Positions 5,379 to 63,517 of a stretch of DNA of 64,000 bases are shown here, piece by piece. The stretch is taken from assembly GCA_023252275.1 (NCBI GenBank), contig JAHHGO010000001.1:3708-67707 (forward strand). The letters run 5' to 3'. The notes beneath the pieces were generated by a model, which worked only from the letters and a program-made list of their open reading frames with translations, made no database searches and was not told where the DNA came from. Position numbers and translations under genes: made by a program. This DNA is from Alphaproteobacteria bacterium. GTDB taxonomy: Bacteria > Pseudomonadota > Alphaproteobacteria > UBA11222. Position 1 is the stretch's first letter, and each line of letters begins with the position of its first letter.

Positions 5379-5383
5379 CGGTT

Positions 5384-6661
5384 TCAGCCTTCTATTGTCA
5401 GCCAGTCCGGGATGCGGTCCAGCCCCAATAATTGTTCATAGGTCTGCCGGGGCCGGATAATGGCAAACGCGTCCCCGCGCACCAGTATTTCCGGCGCCAG
5501 AAGCCTTGTATTATAGGTGCCTGACTGCACGGCTCCATAGGCGCCAGCGGATAGTATCGCCAACAGATCGTTTTCGCCAAGCTCTGTCAGTTCACGATTG
5601 CTTGCAAAACTGTCGCCGGTTTCGCAAACCTGACCCACCACGTCATAAATGCCCCTTGGGGCATGCGGCGCGGCTTCGCGCACCGGCCAGATTTCATGAT
5701 AGGCGTCATAGAGGGTGGGCCGGATCAGATCATTCATGGCCGCGTCAACAATGGCAAAGCGGCGGCTTTCCCCCTGTTTGACGTAAATGGTGCGGCATAC
5801 CAGCACACCGGCATTGCCCATGATCATGCGCCCCGGCTCAAATATCAGCCGGCAGCCCAGCCCGCCGAAAATGCCGGCCACCATCCGGGCGTAATCCTCA
5901 GGCAATGGCGGATTGGCATTGGACTGTTCATAGGGAATGCCCAGGCCACCCCCCAGATCGAGGCTGGTGATTTCATGTCCGTCGCCGCGCAGCGCCAGCG
6001 TCAGTTCGCGCACCTTGGTAAAGGCGTCGCGAAACGGCGCCAGATCGGTCAACTGGCTGCCAATATGCACATCGACGCCCGCAATGCGCAGGCCGGGCAA
6101 TTGCGCGGCTTGCGCATAGACCGCCCGCGCGCGCGCGATGGGAATGCCAAATTTATTTTCGGATTTGCCGGTGGAAATCTTGGCATGGGTTTTTGCATCC
6201 ACATCGGGATTGACCCGGATGGCGATGGCGGCTTTTTTGCCCTTTGCAACGGCGGTTTCGCTCAGCGCCTGCATTTCAGGTTCGGATTCCACATTGAATT
6301 GCGCTATGCCCGCCTCCAGCGCCAGCGCCATTTCAGCGCGGGTTTTTCCCACGCCCGAAAAAACGATCTTGCCGGCTGGAATGCCCGCAGCCAGCGCGCG
6401 GCGCAATTCCCCCTCGGATACGATGTCCGCGCCGCTGCCAAGTTTCGCCAGGGTGCGCACAACGGCCAGATTGCCATTGGCTTTCAGGGAATAACAGACC
6501 AGCGCATTCTGTCCCGCAAAGGCTTCGGCGAAAACCTTGTAATGATGCGTGATGGTGGCGCTTGAATAGCAATAAAACGGCGTGCCTGCCGCCGCCGCGA
6601 TGGCCGACAGCGCCACATCCTCGGCGTAGAGTTCGCCATTGCGATAGTGAAAATGATGCAT
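5384..6661 (-). CDS. lysA: Diaminopimelate decarboxylase
   Basis: 425 aa, PLP-dependent fold III, motifs YSLKAN, GGGLGIPY, CETGD. Confidence 0.9.
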   Translation of the reverse strand: MHHFHYRNGELYAEDVALSAIAAAAGTPFYCYSSATITHHYKVFAEAFAGQNALVCYSLKANGNLAVVRTLAKLGSGADIVSEGELRRALAAGIPAGKIVFSGVGKTRAEMALALEAGIAQFNVESEPEMQALSETAVAKGKKAAIAIRVNPDVDAKTHAKISTGKSENKFGIPIARARAVYAQAAQLPGLRIAGVDVHIGSQLTDLAPFRDAFTKVRELTLALRGDGHEITSLDLGGGLGIPYEQSNANPPLPEDYARMVAGIFGGLGCRLIFEPGRMIMGNAGVLVCRTIYVKQGESRRFAIVDAAMNDLIRPTLYDAYHEIWPVREAAPHAPRGIYDVVGQVCETGDSFASNRELTELGENDLLAILSAGAYGAVQSGTYNTRLLAPEILVRGDAFAIIRPRQTYEQLLGLDRIPDWLTIEG

Positions 6662-6667
6662 ACGGAT

Positions 6668-6808
6668 CTATTCTTTTTCTCTGTCTTTCTGCCATTCGCG
6701 TTCAACGCGCGAATCTTCGACGCCGCCGGGCGGCACTTCCAGAGCGCCTTTTTTGGCGCAGGCGCTGATCAACACCAGCGCCAGCGCCAGCCAGGCCTTG
6801 CGGGCCAT
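6668..6808 (-). CDS. Small lipoprotein (LptM/YifL-like), 46 aa
   Basis: [29 protein letters not shown]...; lipobox LISAC; start ATG overlaps argH stop (ATGA). Below the ORF-track size cutoff. Confidence 0.5.
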   Translation of the reverse strand: MARKAWLALALVLISACAKKGALEVPPGGVEDSRVEREWQKDREKE

Positions 6809-8220
6809 CAACCCAGTTCCTTTTTTGCGGCGGCGATCGCGGAGCGCACACGCTCCGGCGCGGCGCCGCCAAAACTGGTGCGGCTGGCCACCGATGCCTG
6901 CACGGACAGAATATGCCGGGCGGCCTCGGTAATACGCGGCTCCACCGCCTGTAAATCTGTCAGGCTTAATTGCTCAAGCGATACGCCTTTCGCCTCGGCG
7001 CGCTTGACCGTCTCGCCGGTAATATGGTGCGCCTGCCGGAACGGAATATTCAACTCGCGCACCAGCCAGTCGGCCAGATCGGTTGCCGTGCTGTAGCCCT
7101 TGCCCGCGGCGGCCAGCATCGCATCCTCTTTAATGATCATGGTACGGATCATACCGGTCATGGCCGCAATCGACAGGTTCATGGTGTCGGCGGCGTCAAA
7201 TACCTGTTCCTTGTCCTCCTGCATGTCCTTGGAATAGGTCAGCGGTAATCCCTTCATCACCATCAGCAGCGCGGTGAAAGAACCGGCCACCCGGCCGGTT
7301 TTGGCGCGCACCAGTTCGGCGGCGTCGGGATTGCGTTTTTGCGGCATGATCGATGAGCCGGTGGAAAATTCATCGGTCAGCGCGATAAAGCCGAACTGCG
7401 CCGATGACCACAGCACGATCTCTTCGGCCAGCCGCGACAGATGCGTGGCGGCGATGGCGCAAGCGCCGAGGAATTCCAGCGCAAAATCCCGGTCCGATAC
7501 GGCATCGAGCGAATTGCGCATGGGCCGCGCAAAACGCAGCGCCTTCGCGGTCATTTCCCGGTCAATCGGAAAGCTAGTGCCAGCCAGCGCGGCGGCGCCC
7601 AGCGGCGATTCATTCATCCGTACGCGCGCATCCCGCAGGCGCGCGCGATCCCGGCCGAACATTTCCACATAGGCCATCAGATGATGGCCGAAGGTCACCG
7701 GCTGCGCGCTTTGCAGATGGGTAAAGCCGGGCATGATGGTTGCGGCATGTTGCCCGGCGCGCTGCAGCAGTTCGTGTTGCAGATCCTTCAAGGCGGTCTC
7801 CAGCGCATCCGTGGCGTCCCGCACCCACAGGCGGAAATCGACCGCGACCTGATCATTGCGCGACCGGGCCGTATGCAGACGTCCGGCGGCGGGCCCGATA
7901 AGCTCGGCCAGCCGGGCCTCGATATTCATGTGAATATCTTCAAGCGCTTCGCTGAAATTGAATTTACCGGCGCTGATTTCAGCCAGGATCGTATCCAGCC
8001 CCGCCAGAATCTGCGCGCCATCCCTGGCGCCGATGATGCCCTGCTTTATCAGCATCTCGCAATGCGCTTTGGAACCGGCTATATCCTGGGCATACAGCCG
8101 CTGATCAAAACCGATTGAGGCATTGATGCGCGCCATGATTTCAGCCGGGCCGCCCGCAAAACGGCCGCCCCACAGGCTATTGGCGCTGCTTGTCTGCACT
8201 GGTGATGATTTTTTGCGCAT
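6808..8220 (-). CDS. argH: Argininosuccinate lyase
   Basis: 470 aa, LWGGRF N-terminus, fumarate-lyase signature [12 protein letters not shown]. Confidence 0.9.
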
Positions 8221-37997: not shown

Positions 37998-38546
37998 ATG
38001 ATCATGCCTGAACTGGATAAAAGCCGGGGCTTCATTCCCGTTTCAATTGCGCTGCTGACCGTTTCGGACACCCGCAGCCGCGCGGATGACAAATCCGGCG
38101 ATATTCTTGAGGAGCGCATCAAGGCGGCCGGGCATCATCTTGCGGCGCGTGAAATTGTCGCGGATGACCGCGATCTGATCATTGCGCAATTGCGCCGCTG
38201 GATTATCGATCCGGCCATTGACGTGGTGATTTCAACAGGCGGCACCGGCCTGACCGGGCGCGATGTGACGCCGGAAGCCTTTCATGCCGTGTATGAAAAG
38301 GAAATTGACGGATTTTCAGCCGTGTTCCATGCCATCAGCTACGCCAAGATCGGCGTTTCCACCATTCAGTCGCGCGCGACGGCGGGCGTGGCGGGAGGCA
38401 CTTATCTGTTCGCGCTGCCCGGCTCGCCCGGGGCCTGCAAGGATGGCTGGGACGGCATATTGCAATGGCAGCTCGATTACCGTTTCAAACCCTGCAATTT
38501 TGTCGAGATCATGCCGCGCCTTGAGGAACATAAACGCCGCCAGTGA
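37998..38546 (+). CDS. moaB: Molybdenum cofactor biosynthesis protein B (MogA/MoaB fold)
   Basis: STGGTG motif, ~180 aa. Confidence 0.8.
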   Translation: MIMPELDKSRGFIPVSIALLTVSDTRSRADDKSGDILEERIKAAGHHLAAREIVADDRDLIIAQLRRWIIDPAIDVVISTGGTGLTGRDVTPEAFHAVYEKEIDGFSAVFHAISYAKIGVSTIQSRATAGVAGGTYLFALPGSPGACKDGWDGILQWQLDYRFKPCNFVEIMPRLEEHKRRQ

Positions 38547-39145
38547 TGGTAATCGGCGGCACTATCCACATCCGATAAAGTGTCCACATAGCTGATCCGC
38601 GTGCGCCCCCCGCCGCTGATCGTCATGGCGCGGATCGTCGCGTTCAGCACCTGCGGCCCCTCCCAGTCAATGCCGGTAAACAGGCGCCTGCCATGCGGTC
38701 CGCCCGGATGACGCAGGCGTTTCAGGCCAACCAGCCAGAAGCCGCCATCGCTGGCGGGGCCAAACACCATTTCGTTTCGTCCCAGCGCGGCAAAGGCGCG
38801 GGCAATATGCACGGCGCGTATATCTGGAATGTCACTGCCGACAAGCACGGCAGGCCCCGGCGGCAGGGCGCGAAAACTGTTCGCCATGCGGCTTCCCAGA
38901 TCGCCCTGGCCCTGTTTCAGCAAGGCAAAACCCGTGAATAGATTAAAACTGCTTTGCGCATGAATATCCGGGGTTACGGCCAGCCAGACTTTCCATCTTG
39001 GGTCCTGGCCAATCCCCCGGGCGAGTTGCGTCAGCATGGCGCGGTGAAACCGCAGCGCAGCCGGTGCGCCAATTTCCGATGCAAGCCGTCGTTTGACACG
39101 GCCAAGCCGGGGCGCGCGCGTAAAAATAATCAGATGCCGCATCAT
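38477..39145 (-). CDS. DUF2064 / TIGR04282-family glycosyltransferase-like protein
   Basis: MMRHLIIFTRAPRLGRVKRRLASEIG N-terminus typical of DUF2064; ATGA-coupled to the upstream GT2 gene. Confidence 0.6.
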   Translation of the reverse strand: MMRHLIIFTRAPRLGRVKRRLASEIGAPAALRFHRAMLTQLARGIGQDPRWKVWLAVTPDIHAQSSFNLFTGFALLKQGQGDLGSRMANSFRALPPGPAVLVGSDIPDIRAVHIARAFAALGRNEMVFGPASDGGFWLVGLKRLRHPGGPHGRRLFTGIDWEGPQVLNATIRAMTISGGGRTRISYVDTLSDVDSAADYHHWRRLCSSRRGMISTKLQGLKR

Positions 39146-39822
39146 CCATACAGCCGGACGATCATGCGCGGCGGCACACGCAGGAAAAACAGTGACAGGC
39201 AGAACAGATTGCGCAATTGACGGCGCGGATATCCGCCGGAAATATAGCGCGCGGCGGAGGTCAGCGCCGTACTGCGAAAATAGATCAGCCGCGCCCGCCC
39301 GATACGCCGGATCAGATCCACATCTTCCATCAGCGGAATCTTTGCATAGCCGCCAAGCTGGTCATACAGGCTGCGATGGATCAACAGGCCCTGATCCCCG
39401 TAGGGCAGCGCAAACAATTTGCAGCGCATCGCCACCAGCCATTCCAGACGGCGCGCCGGGGGCCTGAAATCATCGAGCGCAAAGCGGAATATGCCGGCAT
39501 GGGTGCGGCTATAGTCCTGCTCGATATAATGCGCCACCTCCTTCTCCCAGCCTTCCGAAAGCACCGTGTCGGCATGCAGGAACAAAAGCCAGTTGCACTT
39601 GGCGGCCTCTGCCCCCCTGGCCAGTTGCCCGCCGCGCCCGGCGGGGCCGGTAACCAGCCTGCAGCCGGTATTTTCGGCAATTTCGCAGCTGGCGTCGTTT
39701 GATCCGCCATCAGAAATAATGACTTCCTTGACCAGCCCGCTGACGACCCCGGGGATCAGGGCGCTCAGCGACAGGGGCAGATGCGGCTCGGCCTCCAGCG
39801 TGGGGATGATGACGCTTAACAT
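39142..39822 (-). CDS. Family 2 glycosyltransferase (TIGR04283-like partner of DUF2064)
   Basis: MLSVIIPTLEAEPHLPLSL...ISDGGSNDAS GT2 motifs. Confidence 0.7.
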   Translation of the reverse strand: MLSVIIPTLEAEPHLPLSLSALIPGVVSGLVKEVIISDGGSNDASCEIAENTGCRLVTGPAGRGGQLARGAEAAKCNWLLFLHADTVLSEGWEKEVAHYIEQDYSRTHAGIFRFALDDFRPPARRLEWLVAMRCKLFALPYGDQGLLIHRSLYDQLGGYAKIPLMEDVDLIRRIGRARLIYFRSTALTSAARYISGGYPRRQLRNLFCLSLFFLRVPPRMIVRLYG

Positions 39823-39913
39823 AAGGGCAATCTACGCCGGACAGGGCGTTCAAAAAAGACTTTACACGTGTCATGATATGTTCTATTAATGTTCTCTTTA
39901 TGTTCAAGACAGG

Positions 39914-41038
39914 ATGACGATAATGGATCAGGCAATGGTGCAGGTTCGTGACGGGGCGGCAATTGTGCATCCCGATGCAAGGCGGGGGCGCGGGGCGGTT
40001 TCCAACGCCAGCGGCCGGTATGAGCCGGTGCAGCATGTGACCCTGGACGATGGCTGGGGCATGCTCGATGAAGCGCCACCGGCGCGCAAAACCAGCGTCA
40101 TGATGGATACGACCCGCACCATTATCGCGCGCAATAATTCGCCGGATATTCCGTTTGACCGCTCGATCAACGCCTATCGCGGCTGTGAACATGGCTGCAT
40201 CTATTGTTTTGCCCGGCCCACGCACGCCTTTTTGGGCTTTTCGCCCGGGCTGGATTTCGAAAGCAGGCTGCTGGCCAAGCCCGATGCGCCCGCTTTGCTG
40301 GAAAAGGAATTGTGCAACCCCAATTACCGGCCGCAGCCCATCGCCATGGGAACGAATACGGATGTTTATCAGCCGGTTGAAAAACATTATCGCATCACGC
40401 GCGGCATTCTGGAGGTGCTGAACCGTTTCAATCATCCGGTGTCGATTGTCACCAAATCGGCGCTGATCACCCGCGACATTGATATACTTTCCGATATGGC
40501 GTCACGCGGGCTGGCCAAGGTCTATGTATCGGTGACGACGCTGGATCGCGGTCTTGCACGGCGCATGGAGCCGCGCGCAGCAACGCCGTGCCGCCGGCTG
40601 CAAACCATCCATAATTTAACCGAGGCGGGCATTCCCACCGGGGTGATGGTGGCGCCGATTATTCCCGCCATCAATGATATGGAGATCGAAGCCATTCTGG
40701 AGGCGGCCAAAAAGGCGGGCGCCCAAAGCGCGGGCTTTGTCATGTTACGCCTGCCGCTGGAAATAAAGACGCTGTTTCGCGAATGGCTGGTGAATGAATT
40801 TCCGGACCGCGCCGATAAGGTTATGTCGCTGGTGCGGGATGTGCGCGGCGGCAGGGATAATGATGCGGCGTTTCATTCGCGAATGCGCGGGCAGGGGCCG
40901 TATGCTGATATGATTGCCGCGCGTTTTCAGATCGCGGTGCGCCGTATTGGTTTTAGCATGTCCGTCCGCAAGCTTGATGTTACGCAATTCCGCGTTCCGC
41001 CGCGCCCCGGCGATCAGATGGATTTGTTCGCGTCGTAA
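39914..41038 (+). CDS. Radical SAM protein, PA0069/SplB-like family
   Basis: CEHGCIYCFARP CxxxCxxC motif in a TIM-barrel-like core; 374 aa. Confidence 0.7.
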   Translation: MTIMDQAMVQVRDGAAIVHPDARRGRGAVSNASGRYEPVQHVTLDDGWGMLDEAPPARKTSVMMDTTRTIIARNNSPDIPFDRSINAYRGCEHGCIYCFARPTHAFLGFSPGLDFESRLLAKPDAPALLEKELCNPNYRPQPIAMGTNTDVYQPVEKHYRITRGILEVLNRFNHPVSIVTKSALITRDIDILSDMASRGLAKVYVSVTTLDRGLARRMEPRAATPCRRLQTIHNLTEAGIPTGVMVAPIIPAINDMEIEAILEAAKKAGAQSAGFVMLRLPLEIKTLFREWLVNEFPDRADKVMSLVRDVRGGRDNDAAFHSRMRGQGPYADMIAARFQIAVRRIGFSMSVRKLDVTQFRVPPRPGDQMDLFAS

Positions 41039-42207
41039 AAGCGCAGGGTTTCGGCAAAGGCCAGGAACAAATGATAGAGCGATGTGGCCGGTATATAGGC
41101 CGAGACGGATTTTCCGGACGCATCCAGCTGATCATTCCAAAGGCCGCTGTCCGGAATGAAATAATTGTCAAAAATCGCGTCAACCGCGGGTGCTATGCGC
41201 GCGTGCGCGGCGGCGCGGATATCGCCGGATGGGCCATGTTCGGCGGTGGATATATAGGCCTTTATGGCCTCGGTCTGCGGCCACAGCCGGTGGGTGGCGC
41301 GCAATTTTTCTCCGCTGCGGCTGATTTCGTCATAGGCAAGGTTACGGCCCGCATGGACGCCATGTTTGCGGGCGAATTCAAATGCCAGATACGACACTTC
41401 ATGCGCTCGCGGCTCACCGGCAAGTTTGGCGTAATTATGCAAAATCCACGACCATTCGAAATGGTGCCCCGGTTCCACAATCTGTCCTTGCGGCCCTTCC
41501 ATCGGCTGCCATTCAAGGCTGAAATATTCACCCAGGCTGTGCGTCTTCACGTCAAAAAACCGTGTACGGAACAGTTCGAACAGATGCGCGCCGCGCTTCA
41601 GATAGGCGGCGTCGCCCGTTGCCTGGTGCAGCGCCAGCATTGCCTCCAGCATATGCATATGCGGGTTTTGCAGGCGCGGCGGGCCCTGAAGCAGCTGACC
41701 TGTGTCGGAAAGCCCGTCAAAATATCCGCCATGCGTGGTGCAGGCCAGACGCTGGTCTAAAAAATCCAGGGTCTGATTGACAATCTCAAGCGCATGCGCG
41801 TCCTGCGACAGGCGGTAGTGCCATGCGCAAGCAAACAGCACGAAGGCCTGGTCATAACTGTCAGCGGCCCTGTCAAGAAGCCGCCCCTCGGGCGTGACGG
41901 TTTTGGCCCATCCCCGCGCCGGACCCTGCCAGTAATTTTGCGTTAAAAAATCAAAGCCCTGTTTTGCCGCTGCGCGCCACGTGCTCTGCCGCGCCGGATC
42001 AGGATCAATCAGCGCCGCATGGGAAAAAACATAAATCTGCCGCGCCTGCACACGGATGCGCTTGTAATCCACCGCGTCGGGCACGCCCGAAAGCGCAAGC
42101 CGTTCGGTAAAGCCGCCATGCGCATGGTCAACCCCGTGCAGACGCCAATGCGGCAGTGCGTGCTCAAACATCCATTTTTCAATTTTGTGTCTGGTTTGGG
42201 CGGACAA
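41014..42207 (-). CDS. AGE-family epimerase/isomerase (N-acylglucosamine 2-epimerase / mannose-6-P isomerase-like)
   Basis: 397 aa (alpha/alpha)6 barrel. Confidence 0.65.
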   Translation of the reverse strand: MSAQTRHKIEKWMFEHALPHWRLHGVDHAHGGFTERLALSGVPDAVDYKRIRVQARQIYVFSHAALIDPDPARQSTWRAAAKQGFDFLTQNYWQGPARGWAKTVTPEGRLLDRAADSYDQAFVLFACAWHYRLSQDAHALEIVNQTLDFLDQRLACTTHGGYFDGLSDTGQLLQGPPRLQNPHMHMLEAMLALHQATGDAAYLKRGAHLFELFRTRFFDVKTHSLGEYFSLEWQPMEGPQGQIVEPGHHFEWSWILHNYAKLAGEPRAHEVSYLAFEFARKHGVHAGRNLAYDEISRSGEKLRATHRLWPQTEAIKAYISTAEHGPSGDIRAAAHARIAPAVDAIFDNYFIPDSGLWNDQLDASGKSVSAYIPATSLYHLFLAFAETLRFYDANKSI

Positions 42208-42982: not shown

Positions 42983-44134
42983 TTATTTTTTGCCCGGCAG
43001 GCGCACCTGCGCGGTTCCGAAAATGGATAATTCGCCGTCCTGATTTTCGGCGCGCTGCGCAATATCGATAATGTTTTCACCATTCTCCTGGCGCTTGCCG
43101 GTCACCTCGCCATGAATATAAAGCACATCGCCCACCGGATTATGGCGGCGGATCTGCGCTTTGGCCTGCCGTAAAAATCCATCATCGCCCATCCAGTTGG
43201 TCAAATGATGGGTCATCCAGGAAAACCGCTCCGGCCCATAATCATAGGCTTCCGGCGCGCCGACCGTGGCGGCAAACTCGCTTTCCCAATGTACCCGTTC
43301 CGGGCAATCGGGAATGCCGAAGCGGTTCTTGATGCCCAGCCCCGGATGTTTGTGGATCTGCTGCCAGTTCAGCTTGTTGGCGCGGATATACAGGCCGCCC
43401 CAGCCCTGCGCATAGGCGATGAAACCTGTCACCGTCATGGGGCCCTTGACGATAGCGGGAATTTTGTCTCCGACCTTCACATCCTCGAAATAGCGCGGGG
43501 TTTTTCCGCGCACTTGCTCATGGGCGTAGTTGCGGTAAAACTCCACCAGTTCGGCATCGCTATAGACTTTAGGCTGCGCGGCCTTGACCGCGTCATATTT
43601 GGTGCCGCGCTCGCGCGCAATGTCGCGGTCGGTGCGGAAACACCAGCTATCGGCCTCGCATAACAGATCGCCATCCTGATTATAGAAATTGACATGATAG
43701 ACCTGCTGAATGGCCATGCCTGAAAACCGGGTTTCGTGCGGGATCAATTCCTTGAGCCAGGCTTCGGTGCGCAATTCATCATTGCGGCGGATATGTTTAT
43801 GCCAGTTGAAATCCGCGCCCGCCCACATGGCGTGTACGCCGGGAAGCCCGCCCACGTAACCGGAAATAATCCGGTCACAGGCAAACAGAAAGCTGGGCGG
43901 CGCGATAATGCCCTTATGCGCCGTGCCGGCCGCATAGGCGGGATCGCACCATAGCGGATTGTCATCACCAATGCCATGCGCGTAATGGCGGATATTGTCG
44001 CGGGTGGCCTCATAACACCAGGGCTCCAGCGAATCCTCGATCCGCACGCCTATGCGGGCGCGCAAATCCTCCAGGCCGCGCTCGGTAATGCCGGTAAATT
44101 GCCGTTCCAGCCCGTCCAGTTCATCTGTGCTCAT
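42983..44134 (-). CDS. Double-hotdog MaoC-like (R)-specific enoyl-CoA hydratase/dehydratase
   Basis: ~380 aa, two hotdog halves; GAGGAG SD before ATG at 44134 (track extends to 44158). Confidence 0.65.
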   Translation of the reverse strand: MSTDELDGLERQFTGITERGLEDLRARIGVRIEDSLEPWCYEATRDNIRHYAHGIGDDNPLWCDPAYAAGTAHKGIIAPPSFLFACDRIISGYVGGLPGVHAMWAGADFNWHKHIRRNDELRTEAWLKELIPHETRFSGMAIQQVYHVNFYNQDGDLLCEADSWCFRTDRDIARERGTKYDAVKAAQPKVYSDAELVEFYRNYAHEQVRGKTPRYFEDVKVGDKIPAIVKGPMTVTGFIAYAQGWGGLYIRANKLNWQQIHKHPGLGIKNRFGIPDCPERVHWESEFAATVGAPEAYDYGPERFSWMTHHLTNWMGDDGFLRQAKAQIRRHNPVGDVLYIHGEVTGKRQENGENIIDIAQRAENQDGELSIFGTAQVRLPGKK

Positions 44135-44159
44135 AATATCTCCTCTTACCCCTTCCAAA

Positions 44160-44187
44160 ATGTTCCGCTCATCAGTAACGGAAACAT
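44160..44187. promoter_or_regulatory. Near-perfect inverted repeat atgttccg-N11-cggaaacat in the MaoC/PTE divergent promoter
   Basis: Operator-like 8/9-bp arms. Confidence 0.35.
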
Positions 44188-44258
44188 TTGCAAATTAAAC
44201 CAATCCGCAGCAAGCTAGTGAGCGGAATAATAATAACAGTCTAGCAGGGAGAGGGATC

Positions 44259-45227
44259 ATGTCGATCAATACTGTCACGGGCGCTGTGAGCGCCGATGAT
44301 CTGGGTTTTACGCTCATACACGAGCATTTGACGGCGGGCATGCCGGGCTGGGAGCTGGACCCGGATGATTTCAACCGCAAGGACGAAGTTGCCAGCGCGG
44401 TGGTTAAGCTCAAGGAAATCAAGGAGCTGGGCGTCAAAAGCTTTGTCGATCCCTGCCCGATGGAATTGGGCCGCGACCCTGAATTCGCTGCGGAATGCGC
44501 CTCCAGAAGCGGCATGCAGGTGATTATCGCCACCGGCCTGTATAATGAGGCGCTGGGTATTCCGCAACATTTCCGGATGATGGATGCGGACGCGATCGCC
44601 GAAATCTATACGCGTGAACTGACCGATGGAATTGGCAAAACCGGAATCAAGGCCGGCATTATCAAGGTGGCGACGGGCGGCATTCCCGGCATGACCGCCA
44701 GCAGCAACGCCATCAGCAAGGCGGAAATGCTGACCCTGCGCGCCGCAGCCAAGGCGCAAAAGGCCACCGGCGCACCCATCCTGTGCCACAATAGCGAGGT
44801 CGAACCCTATGGCCGCCAGGTGCTGGACGTCATGGCGGAGGAAGGGGTTGATTTCAACAAGGTGCTGATCGGCCATGCCTGCGGCGTCGGTGATCTGAGA
44901 TATTATTTCGACATACTGGATCGCGGCGCATGGCTGGGCTTTGACCGTTTCGGGCTGGAATCCATTGCGACCGACAAATTGCGTCTGGCGGGCCTGATGG
45001 GGCTGCTGGCGGTGGGCTATGACCGGATTATGCTGTCGCATGACGCGGTGCATTGTCTGCGCGGGCGCGCAGGCGGCGGCTTCAGCGCCATGTTGCAGGG
45101 CAATCCGAAATGGAATTACGCGCATATCTCGCGCAACATTCTGCCGCAAATGCGCGCAGCCGGGGTGCCTGAAGAAAAAATCAGGAACCTGACCACCAAT
45201 AATCCCCGCAGCTATTTCAAAAAATAG
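44259..45227 (+). CDS. Phosphotriesterase-family (PTE-like lactonase/amidohydrolase) protein, copy 1
   Basis: LIHEHL metal-binding HxH, TIM-barrel amidohydrolase; 322 aa. Confidence 0.8.
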   Translation: MSINTVTGAVSADDLGFTLIHEHLTAGMPGWELDPDDFNRKDEVASAVVKLKEIKELGVKSFVDPCPMELGRDPEFAAECASRSGMQVIIATGLYNEALGIPQHFRMMDADAIAEIYTRELTDGIGKTGIKAGIIKVATGGIPGMTASSNAISKAEMLTLRAAAKAQKATGAPILCHNSEVEPYGRQVLDVMAEEGVDFNKVLIGHACGVGDLRYYFDILDRGAWLGFDRFGLESIATDKLRLAGLMGLLAVGYDRIMLSHDAVHCLRGRAGGGFSAMLQGNPKWNYAHISRNILPQMRAAGVPEEKIRNLTTNNPRSYFKK

Positions 45228-45236
45228 GAACCAGAC

Positions 45237-46013
45237 ATGGCCGGAAGACTTGACGGAAAAGTAGTGCTGATCACGGGCGGCGCCAGCGGTATTGGCGCAG
45301 CCCATGCCCGTACATTCGCCGCGGAAGGCGCGAAAGTGCTGATCGGCGACATACAGGACAAAATGGGCCAGGAAGTGGCCGATGGCATCGGCATCACCAA
45401 TAGCGGCGGCCAGGCGGCCTATACCAATCTGGACGTGACCAGCGAAAAAAGCTGGGACGATGCGGTGAAGAAAGCCGTCAATATGTATGGCAAGCTGACG
45501 ACGCTGATCAACAATGCGGGCCTGGCCATCATGGGCGGCGTTACCACGGAAACCCAGGCGAGCTGGGACAAGACCATCGCCGTCAATCAGATGGGCGTAT
45601 GGTACGGCATGAAGGCCGCGATTCCGGAAATGCTGAAGGCGGGCGGCGGCGCGATTGTCAATATATCGTCCGTCTACGGTATTATTGGCAGCCCGGACAT
45701 GCTTTCCTATCACGCCTCCAAGGGCGCGGTGCGGCTGATGTCCAAGGCGGCGGCGCTGGAATACGCCACCAGGGGTATCCGCATCAATTCCGTGCATCCG
45801 GGCATTATCGAAACGCCGATCCTGACCAAAACCTTTTCCGGCGGCGGCCCCGCCGTGGATTCGTTCGTCAAGGCCATTCAGACCAGAACGCCGCTGGCGC
45901 GTTTCGGCAAGCCGGAGGAAATCGCCTATGGCTCGCTCTATCTGTGCTCGGACGAGGCTTCGTTTGTCACCGGCGCCGAACTGGTGATCGATGGCGGCTG
46001 GACCGCGCAGTAA
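45237..46013 (+). CDS. SDR-family oxidoreductase, copy 1
   Basis: GKVVLITGGASGIGAA, NNAG, S...YxxxK. Confidence 0.85.
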   Translation: MAGRLDGKVVLITGGASGIGAAHARTFAAEGAKVLIGDIQDKMGQEVADGIGITNSGGQAAYTNLDVTSEKSWDDAVKKAVNMYGKLTTLINNAGLAIMGGVTTETQASWDKTIAVNQMGVWYGMKAAIPEMLKAGGGAIVNISSVYGIIGSPDMLSYHASKGAVRLMSKAAALEYATRGIRINSVHPGIIETPILTKTFSGGGPAVDSFVKAIQTRTPLARFGKPEEIAYGSLYLCSDEASFVTGAELVIDGGWTAQ

Positions 46014-46083
46014 ATGATTTGTGTGGAGCGCGCGCCGAACCGCGCGCTCCGGCTTTGCTTATTTTCAAAAGCAGGAAGCGTAG

Positions 46084-46842
46084 ATGGCCGGAAGACTTGA
46101 AGGAAAAGTAGCGCTGATCACGGGCGGCGCCAGTGGTATTGGCGCGGCGCATGCCCGTATCTTTGCCGCCGAGGGCGCCAAGGTGCTGATCGGCGACATA
46201 CAGGATAAAATGGGCCAGGACGTGGCCGATGGCATCGGCATCACCAATAGCGGCGGCCAGGCGGCCTACACCAATCTGGATGTGACATCTGAGAAAAGCT
46301 GGGCGGATGCGGTAAAAAAAGCCGTCAATATGTATGGCAAGCTGACCACGCTGATCAATAATGCCGGTATCGGAATCATGGGCGGCGTCACGACGGAAAC
46401 CCAGGAAAGCTGGGACCGGACCATGGCGGTCAACCAGACCGGGGTATGGTACGGCATGAAAACCGCGATCCCGGAGATTCTGAAGGCGGGCGGCGGGGCG
46501 ATCGTCAATATTTCATCTTTATACGGAATTATTGGCAGTCCGGACATGTTCGCCTATCACGCTTCCAAGGGCGCGGTGCGGCTGATGTCCAAGGCGGCGG
46601 CGCTGGAATATGCCACCCAGGGCATCCGCATCAATTCGGTGCATCCGGGCATCATCAACACCCCCATTCTGGGAACGGCTCTGACCCCGGAAATTGTTCA
46701 GGGGATTATCGGCAAGACCCCTGTCGGAAGGCTGGGCCGGCCCGAGGATATTGCCTATGGATCGCTTTATCTGTGTTCGGACGATGCCTCATTTGTAACC
46801 GGCGCCGAACTGGTTATCGATGGCGGGTGGCTGGCGCAATAA
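46084..46842 (+). CDS. SDR-family oxidoreductase, copy 2 (tandem paralog)
   Basis: ~90% nt identity to copy 1 over the first ~300 nt by eye. Confidence 0.85.
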   Translation: MAGRLEGKVALITGGASGIGAAHARIFAAEGAKVLIGDIQDKMGQDVADGIGITNSGGQAAYTNLDVTSEKSWADAVKKAVNMYGKLTTLINNAGIGIMGGVTTETQESWDRTMAVNQTGVWYGMKTAIPEILKAGGGAIVNISSLYGIIGSPDMFAYHASKGAVRLMSKAAALEYATQGIRINSVHPGIINTPILGTALTPEIVQGIIGKTPVGRLGRPEDIAYGSLYLCSDDASFVTGAELVIDGGWLAQ

Positions 46843-46890
46843 TCAACGGCTCACAAGAGACTGACACCAACTCAAACAGGGAGATCAGCA

Positions 46891-47856
46891 ATGGCTATCA
46901 ATTCAGCAACGGGAAAAATGAACCCGGAAGATCTGGGATTTACACTGGTGCACGAACATCTTTCGGTAGGCTGGCCCGGCTGGGAGCTGGACCCGAAAGA
47001 TATTGACCGCAAGAAAGAAGTGGCCAGCGCCGTGGTCAAGATGAAAGAGATCAGGGAGCTTGGCGTTAAAAGCATTGTTGATCCGTGCCCGATGGATCTG
47101 GGCCGCGATGTCGAATTCGCCGCCGAGGTTTCGGATAAATCCGGGGTCAATGTGATTGTCGCCACAGGCCTGTATAATGACGCGCTGGGCATTCCGCAGC
47201 ATTTCCGGCTGATGGATATTGACGGCATTGCCGAGATTTACGCACATGAAATTCAGGAAGGCGTCGGCAAGACCGGTATCCGGGCGGGCCTCATCAAGGT
47301 GGCGTCCGGCGGCATCAAGGGCGTTACGCCGCAGGGGGCGGGCATTACCAGCGCGGAAGAAAAATGCATGCGCGCCGCCGCCCGGGCGCATCGCAAAACC
47401 GGCGTGCCCATCCTGTGCCATAATGACGAGTTCGATCCGCATGGCTCGAAATCGCTGGATATTTTTGCCGAGGAGGGCGTCGATTTCAACAAGGTGATGA
47501 TCGGCCATTCCTGCGGCGTTGGCGATATGCGCTATTATTTTGAAGTTCTGCAACGCGGCGCATGGCTTGGCTTTGACCGTTTTGGCATTGAAACCATCTG
47601 TTCTGACAAGATGCGCATGGCGTCGCTGATCGGCCTTCTCGGGGTTGGCTTTGACCGCATCATGCTGTCGCATGACGCGCTGCATTGCTGGCGCGGGCGC
47701 GACACCGGGGTGCTTGATGGCATGATGAAAGGTTCGCCGAACTGGAATTTTTCGCATATCTCGCGCAACATTCTGCCGGCGCTGCGCAAATCCGGCGTGC
47801 CGGATGCCCAGATCAATACGCTGACGACCAACAATCCCATGAACTATTTCAAATAG
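46891..47856 (+). CDS. Phosphotriesterase-family protein, copy 2
   Basis: LVHEHL, same architecture and length as copy 1. Confidence 0.8.
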   Translation: MAINSATGKMNPEDLGFTLVHEHLSVGWPGWELDPKDIDRKKEVASAVVKMKEIRELGVKSIVDPCPMDLGRDVEFAAEVSDKSGVNVIVATGLYNDALGIPQHFRLMDIDGIAEIYAHEIQEGVGKTGIRAGLIKVASGGIKGVTPQGAGITSAEEKCMRAAARAHRKTGVPILCHNDEFDPHGSKSLDIFAEEGVDFNKVMIGHSCGVGDMRYYFEVLQRGAWLGFDRFGIETICSDKMRMASLIGLLGVGFDRIMLSHDALHCWRGRDTGVLDGMMKGSPNWNFSHISRNILPALRKSGVPDAQINTLTTNNPMNYFK

Positions 47857-47867
47857 CAGGAGCGTAT

Positions 47868-48623
47868 ATGACCGGAAGACTTGAAGGCAAAGTGGTTCTG
47901 ATCAGCGGCGGCGCCAGCGGCATTGGCGAGGCGCATGCGCGCGTCTTTGCCGCCGAGGGCGCCAAGGTGCTGATCGGCGACATTCAGGAAAAAATGGGCA
48001 AGGATGTGGCCGATTCCATTGGCATCACCAATAGCGGCGGCCAGGCGGCCTTTACCGCGCTGGACGTGTCGAACGAAGCAAGCTGGAACGACGCGGTTAA
48101 AAAGGCGGTGAACCTGTATGGCAAACTGACCACGCTGATCAACAATGCGGGTATCGGCATGGCGGGCGGCGTCACCACCGAGTCCCAGGCCAGCTGGGAC
48201 AAAACCATTTCGGTCAATCAGATGGGCGTATGGTACGGCATGAAAACCGTTATTCCGGAAATGCTGAAGGCGGGCGGCGGGGCCATCGTCAATGTTTCTT
48301 CCGTATACGGAATTATTGGCAGCCCCGGCATGCTGTCCTATCACGCCTCCAAGGGCGCGGTGCGGCTGATGTCCAAGGCGGCGGCGCTGGAATACGCAAC
48401 CCAGGGTGTCCGCATCAATTCGATCCATCCGGGTATTATCGCAACGCCGCTGGCCAAATCCATGCCGCAAGCCTTTCTGGATGATCTGGTCAGCAAAACG
48501 CCGATCGGCCGGCTGGGCAAGCCGGAGGATATTGCCAGAGGTTCGCTCTATCTGTGTTCCGACGAAGCATCCTTTGTAACCGGCGCGGAACTGGTTGTGG
48601 ACGGTGGCTGGACGGCGCAATAA
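47868..48623 (+). CDS. SDR-family oxidoreductase, copy 3
   Basis: Same motifs; third paralog. Confidence 0.85.
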   Translation: MTGRLEGKVVLISGGASGIGEAHARVFAAEGAKVLIGDIQEKMGKDVADSIGITNSGGQAAFTALDVSNEASWNDAVKKAVNLYGKLTTLINNAGIGMAGGVTTESQASWDKTISVNQMGVWYGMKTVIPEMLKAGGGAIVNVSSVYGIIGSPGMLSYHASKGAVRLMSKAAALEYATQGVRINSIHPGIIATPLAKSMPQAFLDDLVSKTPIGRLGKPEDIARGSLYLCSDEASFVTGAELVVDGGWTAQ

Positions 48624-48649: not shown

Positions 48650-49267
48650 ATGGGCATTTACGAGAAATATTTTCTGCCAAAGCTGATCAATTGCGCCTGT
48701 GGGGCCAAACCGATCACCCGCCAGCGCGCCAAGGTGGTGCCGCTGGCGCATGGCCGGGTGCTGGAAATTGGCGTGGGGGCGGGCCACAATATTCCGCATT
48801 ATGACGCCGCAAAAATTGAAATGCTCTATGCGCTGGAACCATCGGGCGAAATGCGCGCATTGGCGGCGGAACGGGCCGGCAAGGCGCCTTTCAAGGTGGA
48901 ATTTATCGATCTGCCCGGCGAGCGGATTCCTCTGCAAGACAACAGCGTCGATACGGTGGTGACGACCTTTACCCTCTGCACCATCCCGGATACACTCACG
49001 GCGCTGCGCGGTATGCTGCGGGTGCTGCGCCCCGATGGGCAGCTTTTGTTTTGCGAACATGGCATCGCGCCCGACGCCTCGGTGGCGGCCTGGCAAAACC
49101 GGATTAATCCGTTCTGGAAACCCATTGGCGGAGGCTGCAACATAAACCGGGCAATTCCGCAGCTTATCGAGGCGGCAGGATTCAAAATTAATGACCTTGA
49201 GACCATGTATCTGCCCAATACCCCCCGAATTATGGCCTATAATTACTGGGGTTCGGCGCGCCGTTAA
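48650..49267 (+). CDS. Class I SAM-dependent methyltransferase
   Basis: VLEIGVGAGHN motif I. Confidence 0.75.
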   Translation: MGIYEKYFLPKLINCACGAKPITRQRAKVVPLAHGRVLEIGVGAGHNIPHYDAAKIEMLYALEPSGEMRALAAERAGKAPFKVEFIDLPGERIPLQDNSVDTVVTTFTLCTIPDTLTALRGMLRVLRPDGQLLFCEHGIAPDASVAAWQNRINPFWKPIGGGCNINRAIPQLIEAAGFKINDLETMYLPNTPRIMAYNYWGSARR

Positions 49268-61888: not shown

Positions 61889-63517
61889 ATGCTACAGTCA
61901 GGGCCGCTGAACGGCATTAAGGTCATTGATCTTTCACGGGTCCTGGCAGGCCCCTATTGCACCATGCTGCTGCTGGATCTTGGCGCCAGCGTCACCAAGG
62001 TGGAAACCCCTGCCGGTGGCGATGATGCGCGGGCCTTTGGCCCTTTTATCGGCGATCGCTCGGCCTATTTCATGTCGCTCAACCGGGGTAAGCGCTCCAT
62101 CGCGCTTGATCTGAAGGCGCCCGCAGATCGGGAAATATTCGAGCAACTGCTGGCGAACGCCGATGTGCTGGTGGAAAATTTCCGTGCTGGAACCATGGAA
62201 AAGCTGGGTTATGGCTGGGATGCGCTGCGGGCGCGTTATCCGCATCTGATCTATGCCGCCACCAGCGGTTTTGGCCATACCGGGCCTTATTCGGATCGTC
62301 CGGCCTATGACATGGTCGTTCAGGGCATGGGCGGCATTATGAGCCTGACCGGTTATCCCGGTGGCCCGCCCACAAGGGTTGGCAGTTCCATCGGCGATAT
62401 TACCGCGGGCCTGTTTACTTCTATCGGCATTCTGTCGGCGCTGCATCACCGCACCGAAACCGGCAGGGGCCAGAAGGTGGATGTCTCGATGCTGGATTGC
62501 CAGCTGGCCATTCTGGAAAACGCCATTGTGCGTTATTTTACCACGGGCGAAATTCCGGCGCCGCTGGGCGCACGGCACCCGTCCATCACACCGTTCGAGG
62601 CCTACGCCGCGCAGGATGGACATGTGATTATTGCCGCGGGCAATGACAAACTGTTCCATCTGGCGCTGGAAGCGCTTGACCTGCCGGAATTGCAGCATGA
62701 TCCGCGCTTTACCAGCGGACCGTTGCGCAACATGAATGTCGAGGCGCTGAAGCAATGTTTTGAAGCGGCGCTGCTGAAAAATACCGTCGATTACTGGCTG
62801 GCGCGGCTGCAGGAACGCGGCGTCCCGGCCGGGCCGATCAATAATGTGGCGCAGATACTGGCCGATCCGCAGATCAAGGTCCGCAATATGGTGGTGACGG
62901 CGCAAGACCCGGTGGCGGGTACGCTGCATATGGCCGGTAATCCCATCAAGCTGTCGGCGTTTCATGATCCTGAAACGCGCGGCGCGCCGCCATCGCTGGA
63001 TGGCGACCGGGCGGCGATTCTGCGTGAGTTGAGCGGAACGCAACTGAATCTGGCGCGCATCAAAGAAGCGGATCGGGAAACTATTGAACATTTCATGCTG
63101 GAGAGGTTCAGCTCTGTTTATATGCCCGGCCCGGAGGCGGTGCAGGATGTGCGCTCACTTCCGGGTTTCACCGCGAGAAATGCGGATGGCCTTGCGGGGC
63201 TGGCGAGTGTCACAATCCAGCAGGACCGCGCGCAACTTGTGTGTCTGGACAGCCTGCATTCCGGTCGCGGCTGCGGCGGGGCGCTGCTGGCGGCGGCGAT
63301 TGATTTTGTCCGCTCCGAGGGGTGCAATAAAATCAGTGTACTGACCGGCAACAATAATCTGCGCGCCATCGGCTTTTTCCAGAAACGCGGTTTTGCAATA
63401 AGCGGGGTGCGTCCGGGCCAGCTTGCCGGTTTTGTGAGGCAAACGCCGGGCTTCCTTGCGCCCGGCGACACGCACATTCCCGCACGGGATTTTCTGGAAA
63501 TGGAACTGGCGCTTTGA
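61889..63517 (+). CDS. CoA-transferase family III (CaiB/BaiF) fused to a C-terminal GNAT N-acetyltransferase domain
   Basis: GIKVIDLSRVLAGPYCTMLLLDLGA...catalytic Asp region (YDMVVQ); residues ~420-542 carry a GNAT-like fold (GRGCGGALLAAAIDFVRSEGCNKISVLT...). Confidence 0.7.
   Translation: MLQSGPLNGIKVIDLSRVLAGPYCTMLLLDLGASVTKVETPAGGDDARAFGPFIGDRSAYFMSLNRGKRSIALDLKAPADREIFEQLLANADVLVENFRAGTMEKLGYGWDALRARYPHLIYAATSGFGHTGPYSDRPAYDMVVQGMGGIMSLTGYPGGPPTRVGSSIGDITAGLFTSIGILSALHHRTETGRGQKVDVSMLDCQLAILENAIVRYFTTGEIPAPLGARHPSITPFEAYAAQDGHVIIAAGNDKLFHLALEALDLPELQHDPRFTSGPLRNMNVEALKQCFEAALLKNTVDYWLARLQERGVPAGPINNVAQILADPQIKVRNMVVTAQDPVAGTLHMAGNPIKLSAFHDPETRGAPPSLDGDRAAILRELSGTQLNLARIKEADRETIEHFMLERFSSVYMPGPEAVQDVRSLPGFTARNADGLAGLASVTIQQDRAQLVCLDSLHSGRGCGGALLAAAIDFVRSEGCNKISVLTGNNNLRAIGFFQKRGFAISGVRPGQLAGFVRQTPGFLAPGDTHIPARDFLEMELAL

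Follow-up and report, generated by a model that had tools for sequence, protein, structure and literature searches.

Gene content and arrangement of the array

The subject of this report is a tandem array of five genes in a 64,000-nucleotide stretch of an alphaproteobacterial genome (assembly GCA_023252275.1, contig JAHHGO010000001.1, positions 3,708 to 67,707), which is called here the window. Two of the genes, PTE1 and PTE2, code for proteins of the phosphotriesterase (PTE) family, and three, SDR1 to SDR3, for classical short-chain dehydrogenases (SDRs) of a predicted NAD type. A preliminary description of this DNA took the array for a recent amplification. Comparison with related genomes shows us almost certainly the opposite, an old and slowly changing array of paralogues, and its products probably carry out parallel steps of lactone breakdown with differing substrate pockets.

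PTE1 (44259-45227, 322 aa) and PTE2 (46891-47856, 321 aa) both match PF02126. SDR1 (45237-46013, 258 aa), SDR2 (46084-46842, 252 aa) and SDR3 (47868-48623, 251 aa) have Pfam matches and catalytic motifs of their class, those of SDR2 being the same as in SDR1. All five open reading frames (ORFs) are intact and lie on the plus strand in the order PTE-SDR-SDR-PTE-SDR, each behind a Shine-Dalgarno-like leader, with intergenic gaps of 9, 70, 48 and 11 nt. Thus the gene content, order, families and tandem paralogy given in the preliminary description agree with the ORFs and the Pfam matches. The paralogy was recovered by the repeat finder as 300-nt repeat families of three copies, and tblastn between the copies gave E-values from 1e-134 to 1e-156, far beyond chance.

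Divergence between the copies

How much distinction has accumulated between the copies? Over their full length SDR1 and SDR2 share 82.4% of nucleotides and 85% of amino acids, with a third-position identity of 65.1%, a synonymous divergence (dS) of 0.61 and a ratio of nonsynonymous to synonymous divergence (dN/dS) of 0.16. The corresponding values are 81.0%, 80%, 65.3%, 0.57 and 0.22 for SDR1 and SDR3; 80.6%, 79%, 65.7%, 0.58 and 0.24 for SDR2 and SDR3; and 72.1%, 66%, 57.6%, 0.80 and 0.32 for the two PTE genes. The near-identity of synonymous sites expected of a recent duplication was not found in any pair (dS 0.57-0.80, third positions 58-65%).

The identity of about 90% that had been estimated by eye for SDR1 and SDR2 is correct for the first 300 nt (89% by the repeat finder), which is the only stretch near this value, and not for the whole genes. 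Likewise, the near-total protein identity over the first 100 residues comes to 93 identical residues of 100, against 85% at full length. A nucleotide identity well below about 80% had been named as the mark of an ancient paralogous family. The PTE pair, at 72%, has this mark, and the SDRs stand right at the limit (81-82%).

Related loci and the age of the array

Relatives of the array were found by a PTE2 protein search, by contig look-ups and by a scan of species-representative genomes; the loci are numbered L001 onwards. About ten uncultured alphaproteobacterial metagenome-assembled genomes (MAGs) have the same chromosomal neighbourhood, with SLT, MoCF, a glycosyltransferase pair, a radical S-adenosylmethionine (SAM) gene, an epimerase gene of the AGE family, sometimes Hsp20, and a MaoC-type gene in common flanks. 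The GC content of the cluster (0.56-0.60) is similar to that of its flanks. A horizontally acquired island was considered and rejected, as GC is like that of the flanks and related genomes keep the flanking genes in synteny.

The order of the window, PTE1-SDR1-SDR2-PTE2-SDR3, is present in L016, L006 and L014, so the duplication is not specific to one lineage. These are independent assemblies with identical gene order, and for this reason an assembly artefact, the other outcome that the preliminary description had allowed for, was rejected. Collinear alignment of the window extends over about 6.3 kb, with a nucleotide identity of 91.4% to L016 and of 82.9% to L014; therefore the five-gene order is common to genomes that have diverged as far as the SDR copies have diverged from each other.

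Other relatives have fewer genes. L010, L011 and L013 carry PTE1-SDR1-PTE2-SDR3, L004/L015 carry PTE1-SDR2-PTE2-SDR3, L012 is without SDR3, and L008/L018 have the order PTE-PTE-SDR, while in the partial contig of L009 only SDR1-PTE2-SDR3 is visible. The more distant alphaproteobacterium L048/L089 has a single module, in which a MaoC-type gene on the minus strand is followed by PTE-SDR. Since related species have versions with three, four and five genes, copy number has shifted slowly, over species-level time. The four-gene species retain either an SDR1-type or an SDR2-type gene, an outcome that unequal crossing-over between tandem copies of a five-gene ancestor would produce.

In the phylogenetic trees each copy forms its own multi-species clade of orthologues, with bootstrap values of 99% for SDR1, 100% for SDR2 (with L016, L014 and L015 among its members), 84% for SDR3, 100% for PTE1 and 99% for PTE2. 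The sister group of PTE1 consists of the single-copy genes of L046-L051 (98%), from other lineages, and that of PTE2 of genes from Porticoccaceae-type Gammaproteobacteria (96%). The split between PTE1 and PTE2 therefore predates this alphaproteobacterial group.

The junctions between genes provide an additional trace of the duplications. The leader of SDR2, TTATTTTCAAAAGCAGGAAGCGTAG (46060-46083, plus strand), aligns with the last codons of PTE2 and the ribosome-binding site before SDR3 (CTATTTCAAATAGCAGGAGCGTAT), and also with the equivalent stretch ahead of SDR1. Repeat family D2 begins 24 nt upstream of the SDR start codons. This leader resembles a remnant of the 3′ end of a PTE gene with the ribosome-binding site behind it, and it would mark the 5′ edge of the duplicated SDR unit.

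Two further observations concern the relatives themselves. In L011, SDR1 and PTE2 are separated by a 2.9-kb insertion (5110-8001) that codes for a TetR-family regulator and for a 613-aa protein in which a fatty-acyl reductase-like NAD_binding_4 domain is fused to an alpha/beta hydrolase. In L001-L003 (Logan contigs of SRR13723395, SRR14271333 and SRR24775931) the PTE2 protein is identical to that of the window; these contigs of 1.3-1.4 kb end inside the flanking SDR genes, as expected if identical SDR runs tangle short-read assembly graphs.

Gene conversion and possible recombination

Between the SDR pairs the longest stretches of exact nucleotide identity measure 47, 62 and 47 nt, and between the PTE genes 26 nt; the longest SDR run spans the catalytic Tyr-Lys segment. 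The SDR runs exceed the expectation from shuffled codon columns (p = 0.048, 0.0006 and 0.012, respectively). At third positions of codons 1-100, SDR1 and SDR2 of L014 cluster together (91%). After codon 100 the SDR2 orthologue group was recovered (72-80%) and SDR1 and SDR2 were not paired by genome, while the SDR1 and SDR3 groups were unresolved. In the first 300 nt, dS between SDR1 and SDR2 of one genome is 0.37-0.42, against 0.64-0.82 between orthologues of different genomes. For the window pair, the difference between the 5′ and 3′ parts (dS 0.41 and 0.76) is a trend only (Fisher p = 0.09); the clearer signal of conversion is the grouping of the L014 genes together with the long identical runs. 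This pattern indicates that the SDR patches of high identity are probably short, occasional gene-conversion tracts on top of strong purifying selection, and not the sign of a young duplication. It is tempting to read high local identity of tandem genes as recent amplification, and here constraint and short conversion tracts are the better reading.

Divergence is also uneven along the operon. Relative to L016, dS is 0.55 in PTE1 and only 0.15 in PTE2 and 0.13 in SDR3. Relative to L014, PTE2 shares 85% of amino acids, and PTE1, SDR1 and SDR2 share 95-96%; relative to L010, PTE2 shares 95% and SDR3 86%. This mosaic suggests that homologous recombination between lineages has taken place inside the operon.

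The PTE-family proteins

PTE1 and PTE2 match PF02126 over profile positions 1-298 with 191 bits (E 4e-56) and 206.9 bits (E 6e-61), the cut-off being 22.4. Altogether 128 solved chains match with E <= 1e-10. The nearest to PTE2 are GsP (3f4c), GkaP (3orw) and Dr0930 (3fdk), with E-values of about 1e-56 to 1e-54, and SsoPox-type enzymes come next. The metal ligands H21, H23, K136, H177, H206 and D262 are present in both proteins, are invariant in 14 family members and align to the ligands of GsP. Both proteins also have Y95 (ATGLYN) and R230 (FDRFG), likewise invariant, which align to ATGYY and FDRFG of GsP. Phosphotriesterase-like lactonases (PLLs) have a tyrosine (Y97 in SsoPox) where true phosphotriesterases carry tryptophan. 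This tyrosine and R223 of SsoPox have been named as PLL features, and a tryptophan of loop 8 (W263 in SsoPox) as a key specificity residue (PMC4323659). PTE1 and PTE2 belong to the PLL family on all the sequence features that could be tested.

The two orthologue groups have fixed differences at 16 positions. Residue 28, beside the HxH motif, is Met in PTE1 and Trp in PTE2. Residue 267, five residues past the catalytic Asp, is Leu in PTE1 and Trp in PTE2, and it aligns with the loop-8 Trp of GsP and with the W263 position of SsoPox. The subfamily is 62-97% identical across its members, which come from uncultured Alphaproteobacteria, Porticoccaceae-type Gammaproteobacteria and Binatia.

The SDR proteins

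SDR1 to SDR3 match adh_short/adh_short_C2 with E-values of 1e-60 to 2e-62 and have all motifs of classical SDRs: T/SGGASGIG at 13-20 (TGGASGIG in SDR1), NNAG at 92, N117, SS(V/L)YG at 144 (S144-145 in SDR1) and YHASK at 158-162, with Y158 and K162 in SDR1. All three copies have Asp38 (LIGDI). NAD preference goes with an acidic residue where strand beta-2 ends, so by the usual signature these are predicted to be NAD-type enzymes. The nearest solved structures are L. brevis R-alcohol dehydrogenase and 3alpha(20beta)-hydroxysteroid dehydrogenases (full length, E about 1e-57). The top match is the L. brevis entry 1zjy, which we take to be the NAD-preferring G37D mutant of the NADP enzyme.

Fixed differences between the SDR orthologue groups were found at 20 positions, 10 of them in the substrate loop 192-207, and an indel in this loop makes it 6 residues longer in SDR1 than in SDR2 and SDR3. 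Fixed pocket differences in both the PTEs and the SDRs fit stable subfunctionalisation, and they argue against the adaptive dosage that had been proposed for the copies.

The MaoC-type gene and intergenic elements

Divergently from PTE1 lies the gene of a putative double-hotdog acyl dehydratase (42983-44134, minus strand), with Pfam matches to FAS1_DH_region (65.4 bits, E 7.6e-18) and MaoC (28 bits, cut-off 27). This gene had been recognised in the preliminary description, and the matches bear it out. The ORF can be extended to a TTG at 44158 (42983-44158); its 383-aa homologues start at the ATG at 44134 and are 72-100% identical. Every alphaproteobacterial locus has this gene in divergent orientation to PTE1, the single-cassette L048/L089 among them. 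Profile search of solved structures gave only weak relatives (E about 1e-6). The N-terminal motif GDDNPLW has Trp where hydratase 2 has His, and the C-terminal motif is PDCPERVHW. An AlphaFold model from a 13-sequence alignment was too poor for use (mean pLDDT 49.9). On its sequence this appears to be a well-conserved enzyme family without close structural or functional reference. In Sneathiella limimaris the MaoC-type gene follows an acyl-CoA ligase gene and neighbours a CoA-transferase and an IclR regulator.

Between the MaoC-type gene and PTE1, alignment of 11 loci revealed a conserved block of about 75 nt (44176-44250, no strand assigned), which is almost invariant although coding DNA differs by up to 17%. 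Within it, the 10-bp palindrome ATTTGCAAAT (44186-44195) is identical in 10 of the 11 loci, the distant L048 included; L013 has one substitution (ATTTGCATAT). The palindrome is present once in the window, and no regulator gene adjoins the block there. The block is probably a shared promoter/operator for the two divergent genes, acting as a site in DNA. An RNA element was also considered for this block and rejected: the RNAalifold consensus had -1.0 kcal/mol with no covarying pair, and no Rfam match with E <= 1 was found.

Directly 3′ of the SDR1 stop codon, a terminator scan found a GC-rich hairpin (46024-46051, plus strand) with a stem of 11 bp, 9 G-C pairs and a weak T tract. It is unique in the window and the only strong hairpin in the five-gene array. 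It is conserved in L016; the corresponding place in L014 and L006 is taken by another GC-rich inverted repeat. A role in partial termination or in mRNA stability is possible for this hairpin.

Neighbouring genes

A class I SAM methyltransferase gene (48650-49267, plus strand, 205 aa; Pfam Methyltransf_11, E 3e-18) starts 26 nt 3′ of SDR3. A methyltransferase gene follows SDR3 or PTE2 in all nine double-cassette loci with a long enough contig (L009-L016) and is absent from L018 and L048; the contig of L017 stops just 3′ of SDR3 and is uninformative on this point. The methyltransferase is thus a conserved neighbour of double-cassette loci only, and its membership in the pathway is uncertain. It is weakly similar to ArsM-type arsenite methyltransferases (E 2.5e-11, far under cut-off).

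Upstream, in the region 38477-41038, lies a pair of glycosyltransferase genes named for arsenosugar biosynthesis (TIGR04282 and TIGR04283, both above cut-offs), and beside it a PA0069-family radical SAM gene (534.9 bits, cut-off 360). Long ORFs of 518, 284 and 258 aa lie antisense to the PTE and SDR genes (44241-45797, 46903-47757 and 47844-48620, all on the minus strand). They are artefacts of the GC-rich coding strand.

Genomic context of the PTE subfamily

We surveyed 80 species-level loci that carry this PTE subfamily. Neighbours were grouped by a crude clustering of ORFs, which is distorted by the long antisense ORFs typical of GC-rich DNA and which recovered the PTE itself in 68 of the 80 loci, so that the counts of neighbours are lower bounds. 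Genes of family III CoA-transferases were found in the flanks of at least 25 of the 80 loci, often directly 3′ of the PTE gene. Luciferase-like monooxygenases were found in at least 13 loci, and Baeyer-Villiger-type flavin monooxygenases and aldo-keto reductases in at least 8 each. For example, L087 has in one row a Baeyer-Villiger monooxygenase (BVMO), a ferredoxin reductase, an SDR (64% identical to SDR2), a DUF1329 protein, the PTE and a CoA-transferase. Such associations favour lactone catabolism through CoA esters over quorum quenching.

In the Porticoccaceae-type loci L023, L026, L034 and L044 the PTE gene is followed, about 1-7 kb downstream, by a tandem of 4-5 family III CoA-transferase paralogues, which are about 50-54% identical to the enzyme of L051. 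These arrays are a much more striking tandem expansion than that of the window.

Evolution and possible role of the array

The account that we favour, and as a whole consider rather probable, is that of an old paralogue operon with diverged enzymes of lactone breakdown. Its evolutionary part is, in our view, nearly certain. The array would be a chromosomal operon, stably passed on in an uncultured lineage of Alphaproteobacteria and derived from an ancestral module in which a MaoC-type dehydratase gene stood divergent from a PLL gene with a translationally coupled NAD-dependent SDR gene. Long ago this module would have expanded into two lactonase and three dehydrogenase paralogues. The copies have presumably been retained by purifying selection (dN/dS 0.16-0.32) and have diverged mainly at substrate-pocket positions; therefore they most likely serve different compounds of a single substrate class, and not extra dosage. 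Unequal crossing-over of the tandem SDR genes is the probable cause of a slow change of copy number from species to species, while short gene-conversion tracts would keep SDR patches nearly identical.

The biochemical part, a route from lactone to hydroxy acid to CoA ester, is a tentative proposal on which our opinion is almost evenly divided. Each PTE-family enzyme would open a lactone ring to give a hydroxy acid, and the adjacent SDR would oxidise, with NAD+, a hydroxyl of the same carbon skeleton, either that freed by ring opening or one in an alcohol or lactol that precedes the lactone. The acid would afterwards be processed as its CoA thioester, a hydration or dehydration step being the part of the MaoC-type enzyme.

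A more specific version is possible, although we find it rather doubtful. The PTE genes would here represent a strongly conserved PLL branch without a characterised member, responsible for the ring-opening step of a widespread environmental lactone pathway, and the pockets of lactonases and dehydrogenases would be diverging together (paired neofunctionalisation). The lactones could be formed from, for instance, alicyclic or terpenoid compounds by monooxygenases of the Baeyer-Villiger or luciferase type, and the products could feed the CoA-transferases.

Several observations weigh against the favoured account. On the evolutionary side, the dS between paralogues (about 0.6) is no larger than some dS between orthologues (0.65-1.24), as expected from saturation, shared codon usage and conversion, and this overlap weakens dating by dS alone. 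The trees are neighbour-joining trees with bootstrap only. The three SDRs of the array are monophyletic with respect to the SDRs of L048 and L051 (100%), whereas PTE1 and PTE2 are not monophyletic; therefore either duplication did not take the PTE-SDR pair as a whole or homogenisation of the SDRs happened early on. On the biochemical side, the nearest solved lactonases are only about 37% identical. The PLL-B relatives score 188-194 bits, against 175-178 for the SsoPox-type (PLL-A) enzymes and 174.5 for PPH, a gap too small for prediction of specificity. The cluster has no adjoining gene of a CoA ligase, a CoA-transferase or a lactone-forming monooxygenase in the window, and the nearest CoA-transferase III homologue is 13 kb off (61889-63031). 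A tblastn search with one BVMO query, from L087, had no match in the 64-kb window at E <= 1e-5, luciferase-like monooxygenases not being searched there. In Gammaproteobacteria and Binatia the PTE gene often stands without an SDR or MaoC-type gene, and the MaoC-type family, whose members in many Alpha- and Gammaproteobacteria are 72-76% identical, occurs widely and also away from PTE loci.

Could the array serve the oxidation of sugars instead? On the model of the non-phosphorylative routes of fucose, rhamnose and xylose, the SDRs would be aldose or lactol 1-dehydrogenases, the PTEs the matching lactonases, and the paralogues would serve different sugars. Pairing of a dehydrogenase with a lactonase is the commonest reason for such adjacency. 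A gene of the N-acylglucosamine 2-epimerase family lies upstream of the cluster (41014-42207), and glucose 1-dehydrogenases are among the solved relatives of the SDRs (E about 1e-42). The only NCBIfam model that the SDRs pass is PRK07231, "glucose 1-dehydrogenase" (238-244 bits against 215), but this is a broad subfamily model, and secondary-alcohol and hydroxysteroid dehydrogenases are closer both among solved structures (E about 1e-57) and among the best NCBIfam matches. The phospho-furanose lactonase model NF045706 gave only 74.1 and 78.9 bits for the two PTEs against a cut-off of 630. The operon also has no sugar transporter, sugar-acid dehydratase or aldolase, and a hotdog acyl dehydratase and CoA-transferases suit the chemistry of acyl-CoA, not of sugar acids. 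We regard a sugar pathway as unlikely.

The preliminary description had proposed a module degrading lactones and 3-oxoacyl compounds, possibly for quorum quenching or lactone catabolism. Lactone catabolism is plausible and has some comparative support; quorum quenching and action on 3-oxo-N-acyl-homoserine lactones are not favoured. In the quorum-quenching reading the PTEs would be lactonases acting on N-acyl-homoserine lactones (AHLs), and the SDRs and the MaoC-type enzyme would modify the 3-oxo, 3-hydroxy and enoyl acyl chains of AHLs. PLL-A enzymes are efficient on AHLs, and act on oxo-lactones as well (PMC4323659); the PLL QsdA of Rhodococcus degrades AHLs within a catabolic operon for gamma-lactones (PMC6262395, PMC3689677); and the PTEs of the window retain the Tyr, Arg and loop-8 features of PLLs. 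However, they score slightly better to PLL-B, whose members are exclusive oxo-lactonases (PMC4323659). The SDRs have in Asp38 an NAD-type, oxidative signature and remain under the cut-offs for FabG and 3-oxoacyl reductase (TIGR01830, 181-195 bits against 297.75). No luxI or luxR family name occurred among the Pfam calls of neighbours in the loci looked at, and the recurrent neighbours elsewhere (CoA-transferases, monooxygenases) are catabolic. Taken together, this makes quorum quenching an improbable role.

It is very improbable that the PTEs are organophosphate hydrolases detoxifying phosphotriesters, with the SDRs as unrelated passengers. The best NCBIfam name is indeed organophosphate hydrolase (E 6e-37 to 4e-42), and many solved relatives are labelled phosphotriesterase; but the scores with this model (NF041153) reach 127.7 and 144.5 bits where the cut-off is 500, Tyr95 stands where, as generally known, true phosphotriesterases have Trp, and the SDR genes are translationally coupled to the PTE genes, with gaps of 9-11 nt. 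An identity of 62-97% across Alphaproteobacteria, Gammaproteobacteria and Binatia is also unlike a recently evolved activity on xenobiotics.

Finally, recent or ongoing tandem amplification, with young and unstable duplicates selected for the dosage of one activity, finds some support in co-directional tandem genes with shared leader sequences, in the 5′ identity of SDR1 and SDR2 and in the variable copy number among related genomes, but it can scarcely be maintained and was rejected, as full-length identity (72-82%) and dS are those of old copies, every copy has orthologues in other species, the five-gene order is kept at 83-91% nucleotide identity, and the fixed pocket differences speak against simple dosage.

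Comparison with known systems

A literature search for an operon of PLL and SDR genes, or for a cluster of a BVMO and a PTE-family lactonase, found only reviews. The closest characterised proteins are the PLL-B enzymes GkaP/GsP of Geobacillus (3orw, 3f4c) and Dr0930 of Deinococcus radiodurans (3fdk), which belong to the same PF02126 and align over the full length with E of about 1e-56. PLL-B enzymes act on oxo-lactones only (PMC4323659). The window proteins share with them all six metal-site residues and the PLL Tyr and Arg, and PTE2 keeps the loop-8 Trp. In contrast, PTE1 has Leu at this position, identity to GsP is only about 37%, the loop that follows the carbamylated Lys exceeds that of GsP by 8 residues while three other loops are shorter, and the window genes form paralogue pairs coupled to SDRs.

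The qsd operon of Rhodococcus erythropolis consists of the genes of the lactonase QsdA, the acyl-CoA ligase QsdC and the TetR regulator QsdR and belongs to a gamma-lactone catabolic pathway (PMC6262395, PMC3689677). Its logic is that proposed here: a PTE-family lactonase in a catabolic operon, with the ring-opened product passed on as a CoA ester. The window array is not a qsd operon, however. Its neighbours include neither an AMP-binding acyl-CoA ligase nor a TetR gene, which occurs only in the insertion of L011; its partners are SDRs and a divergent MaoC-type dehydratase, and the lactonase is duplicated.

In the pathways of cycloalkanols and cyclic ketones an SDR, a BVMO and a lactone hydrolase act one after another. 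The pairing of an SDR with a lactone hydrolase is similar, cyclohexanol dehydrogenase 4ure is among the relatives of the SDRs, and L087 unites a BVMO-type monooxygenase, an SDR and a PTE, whereas the window gave no match to the BVMO of L087. The lactone hydrolase of these pathways is usually an alpha/beta hydrolase and not a PTE-family enzyme. With L. brevis R-alcohol dehydrogenase and the 3alpha(20beta)-hydroxysteroid dehydrogenases SDR1 to SDR3 share the catalytic tetrad and the glycine motif. They differ by Asp38, by substrate loops that vary among the copies and by scores of 254-263 bits against the NCBIfam equivalog cut-off of 400.

The cluster is therefore best described as an ordinary array of paralogues whose uncharacterised products belong to known enzyme families, and its evolutionary side (old paralogues, slow turnover of copy number) is ordinary as well. 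Beside the known systems, its value would lie in the enzymes. If the functional reading is true, the array would offer two lactonases and three dehydrogenases with naturally diverged pockets, from a PLL branch without a characterised member that is common in freshwater, groundwater and sediment metagenomes, and lactonases of this kind would be of practical interest in quorum quenching and biocatalysis.

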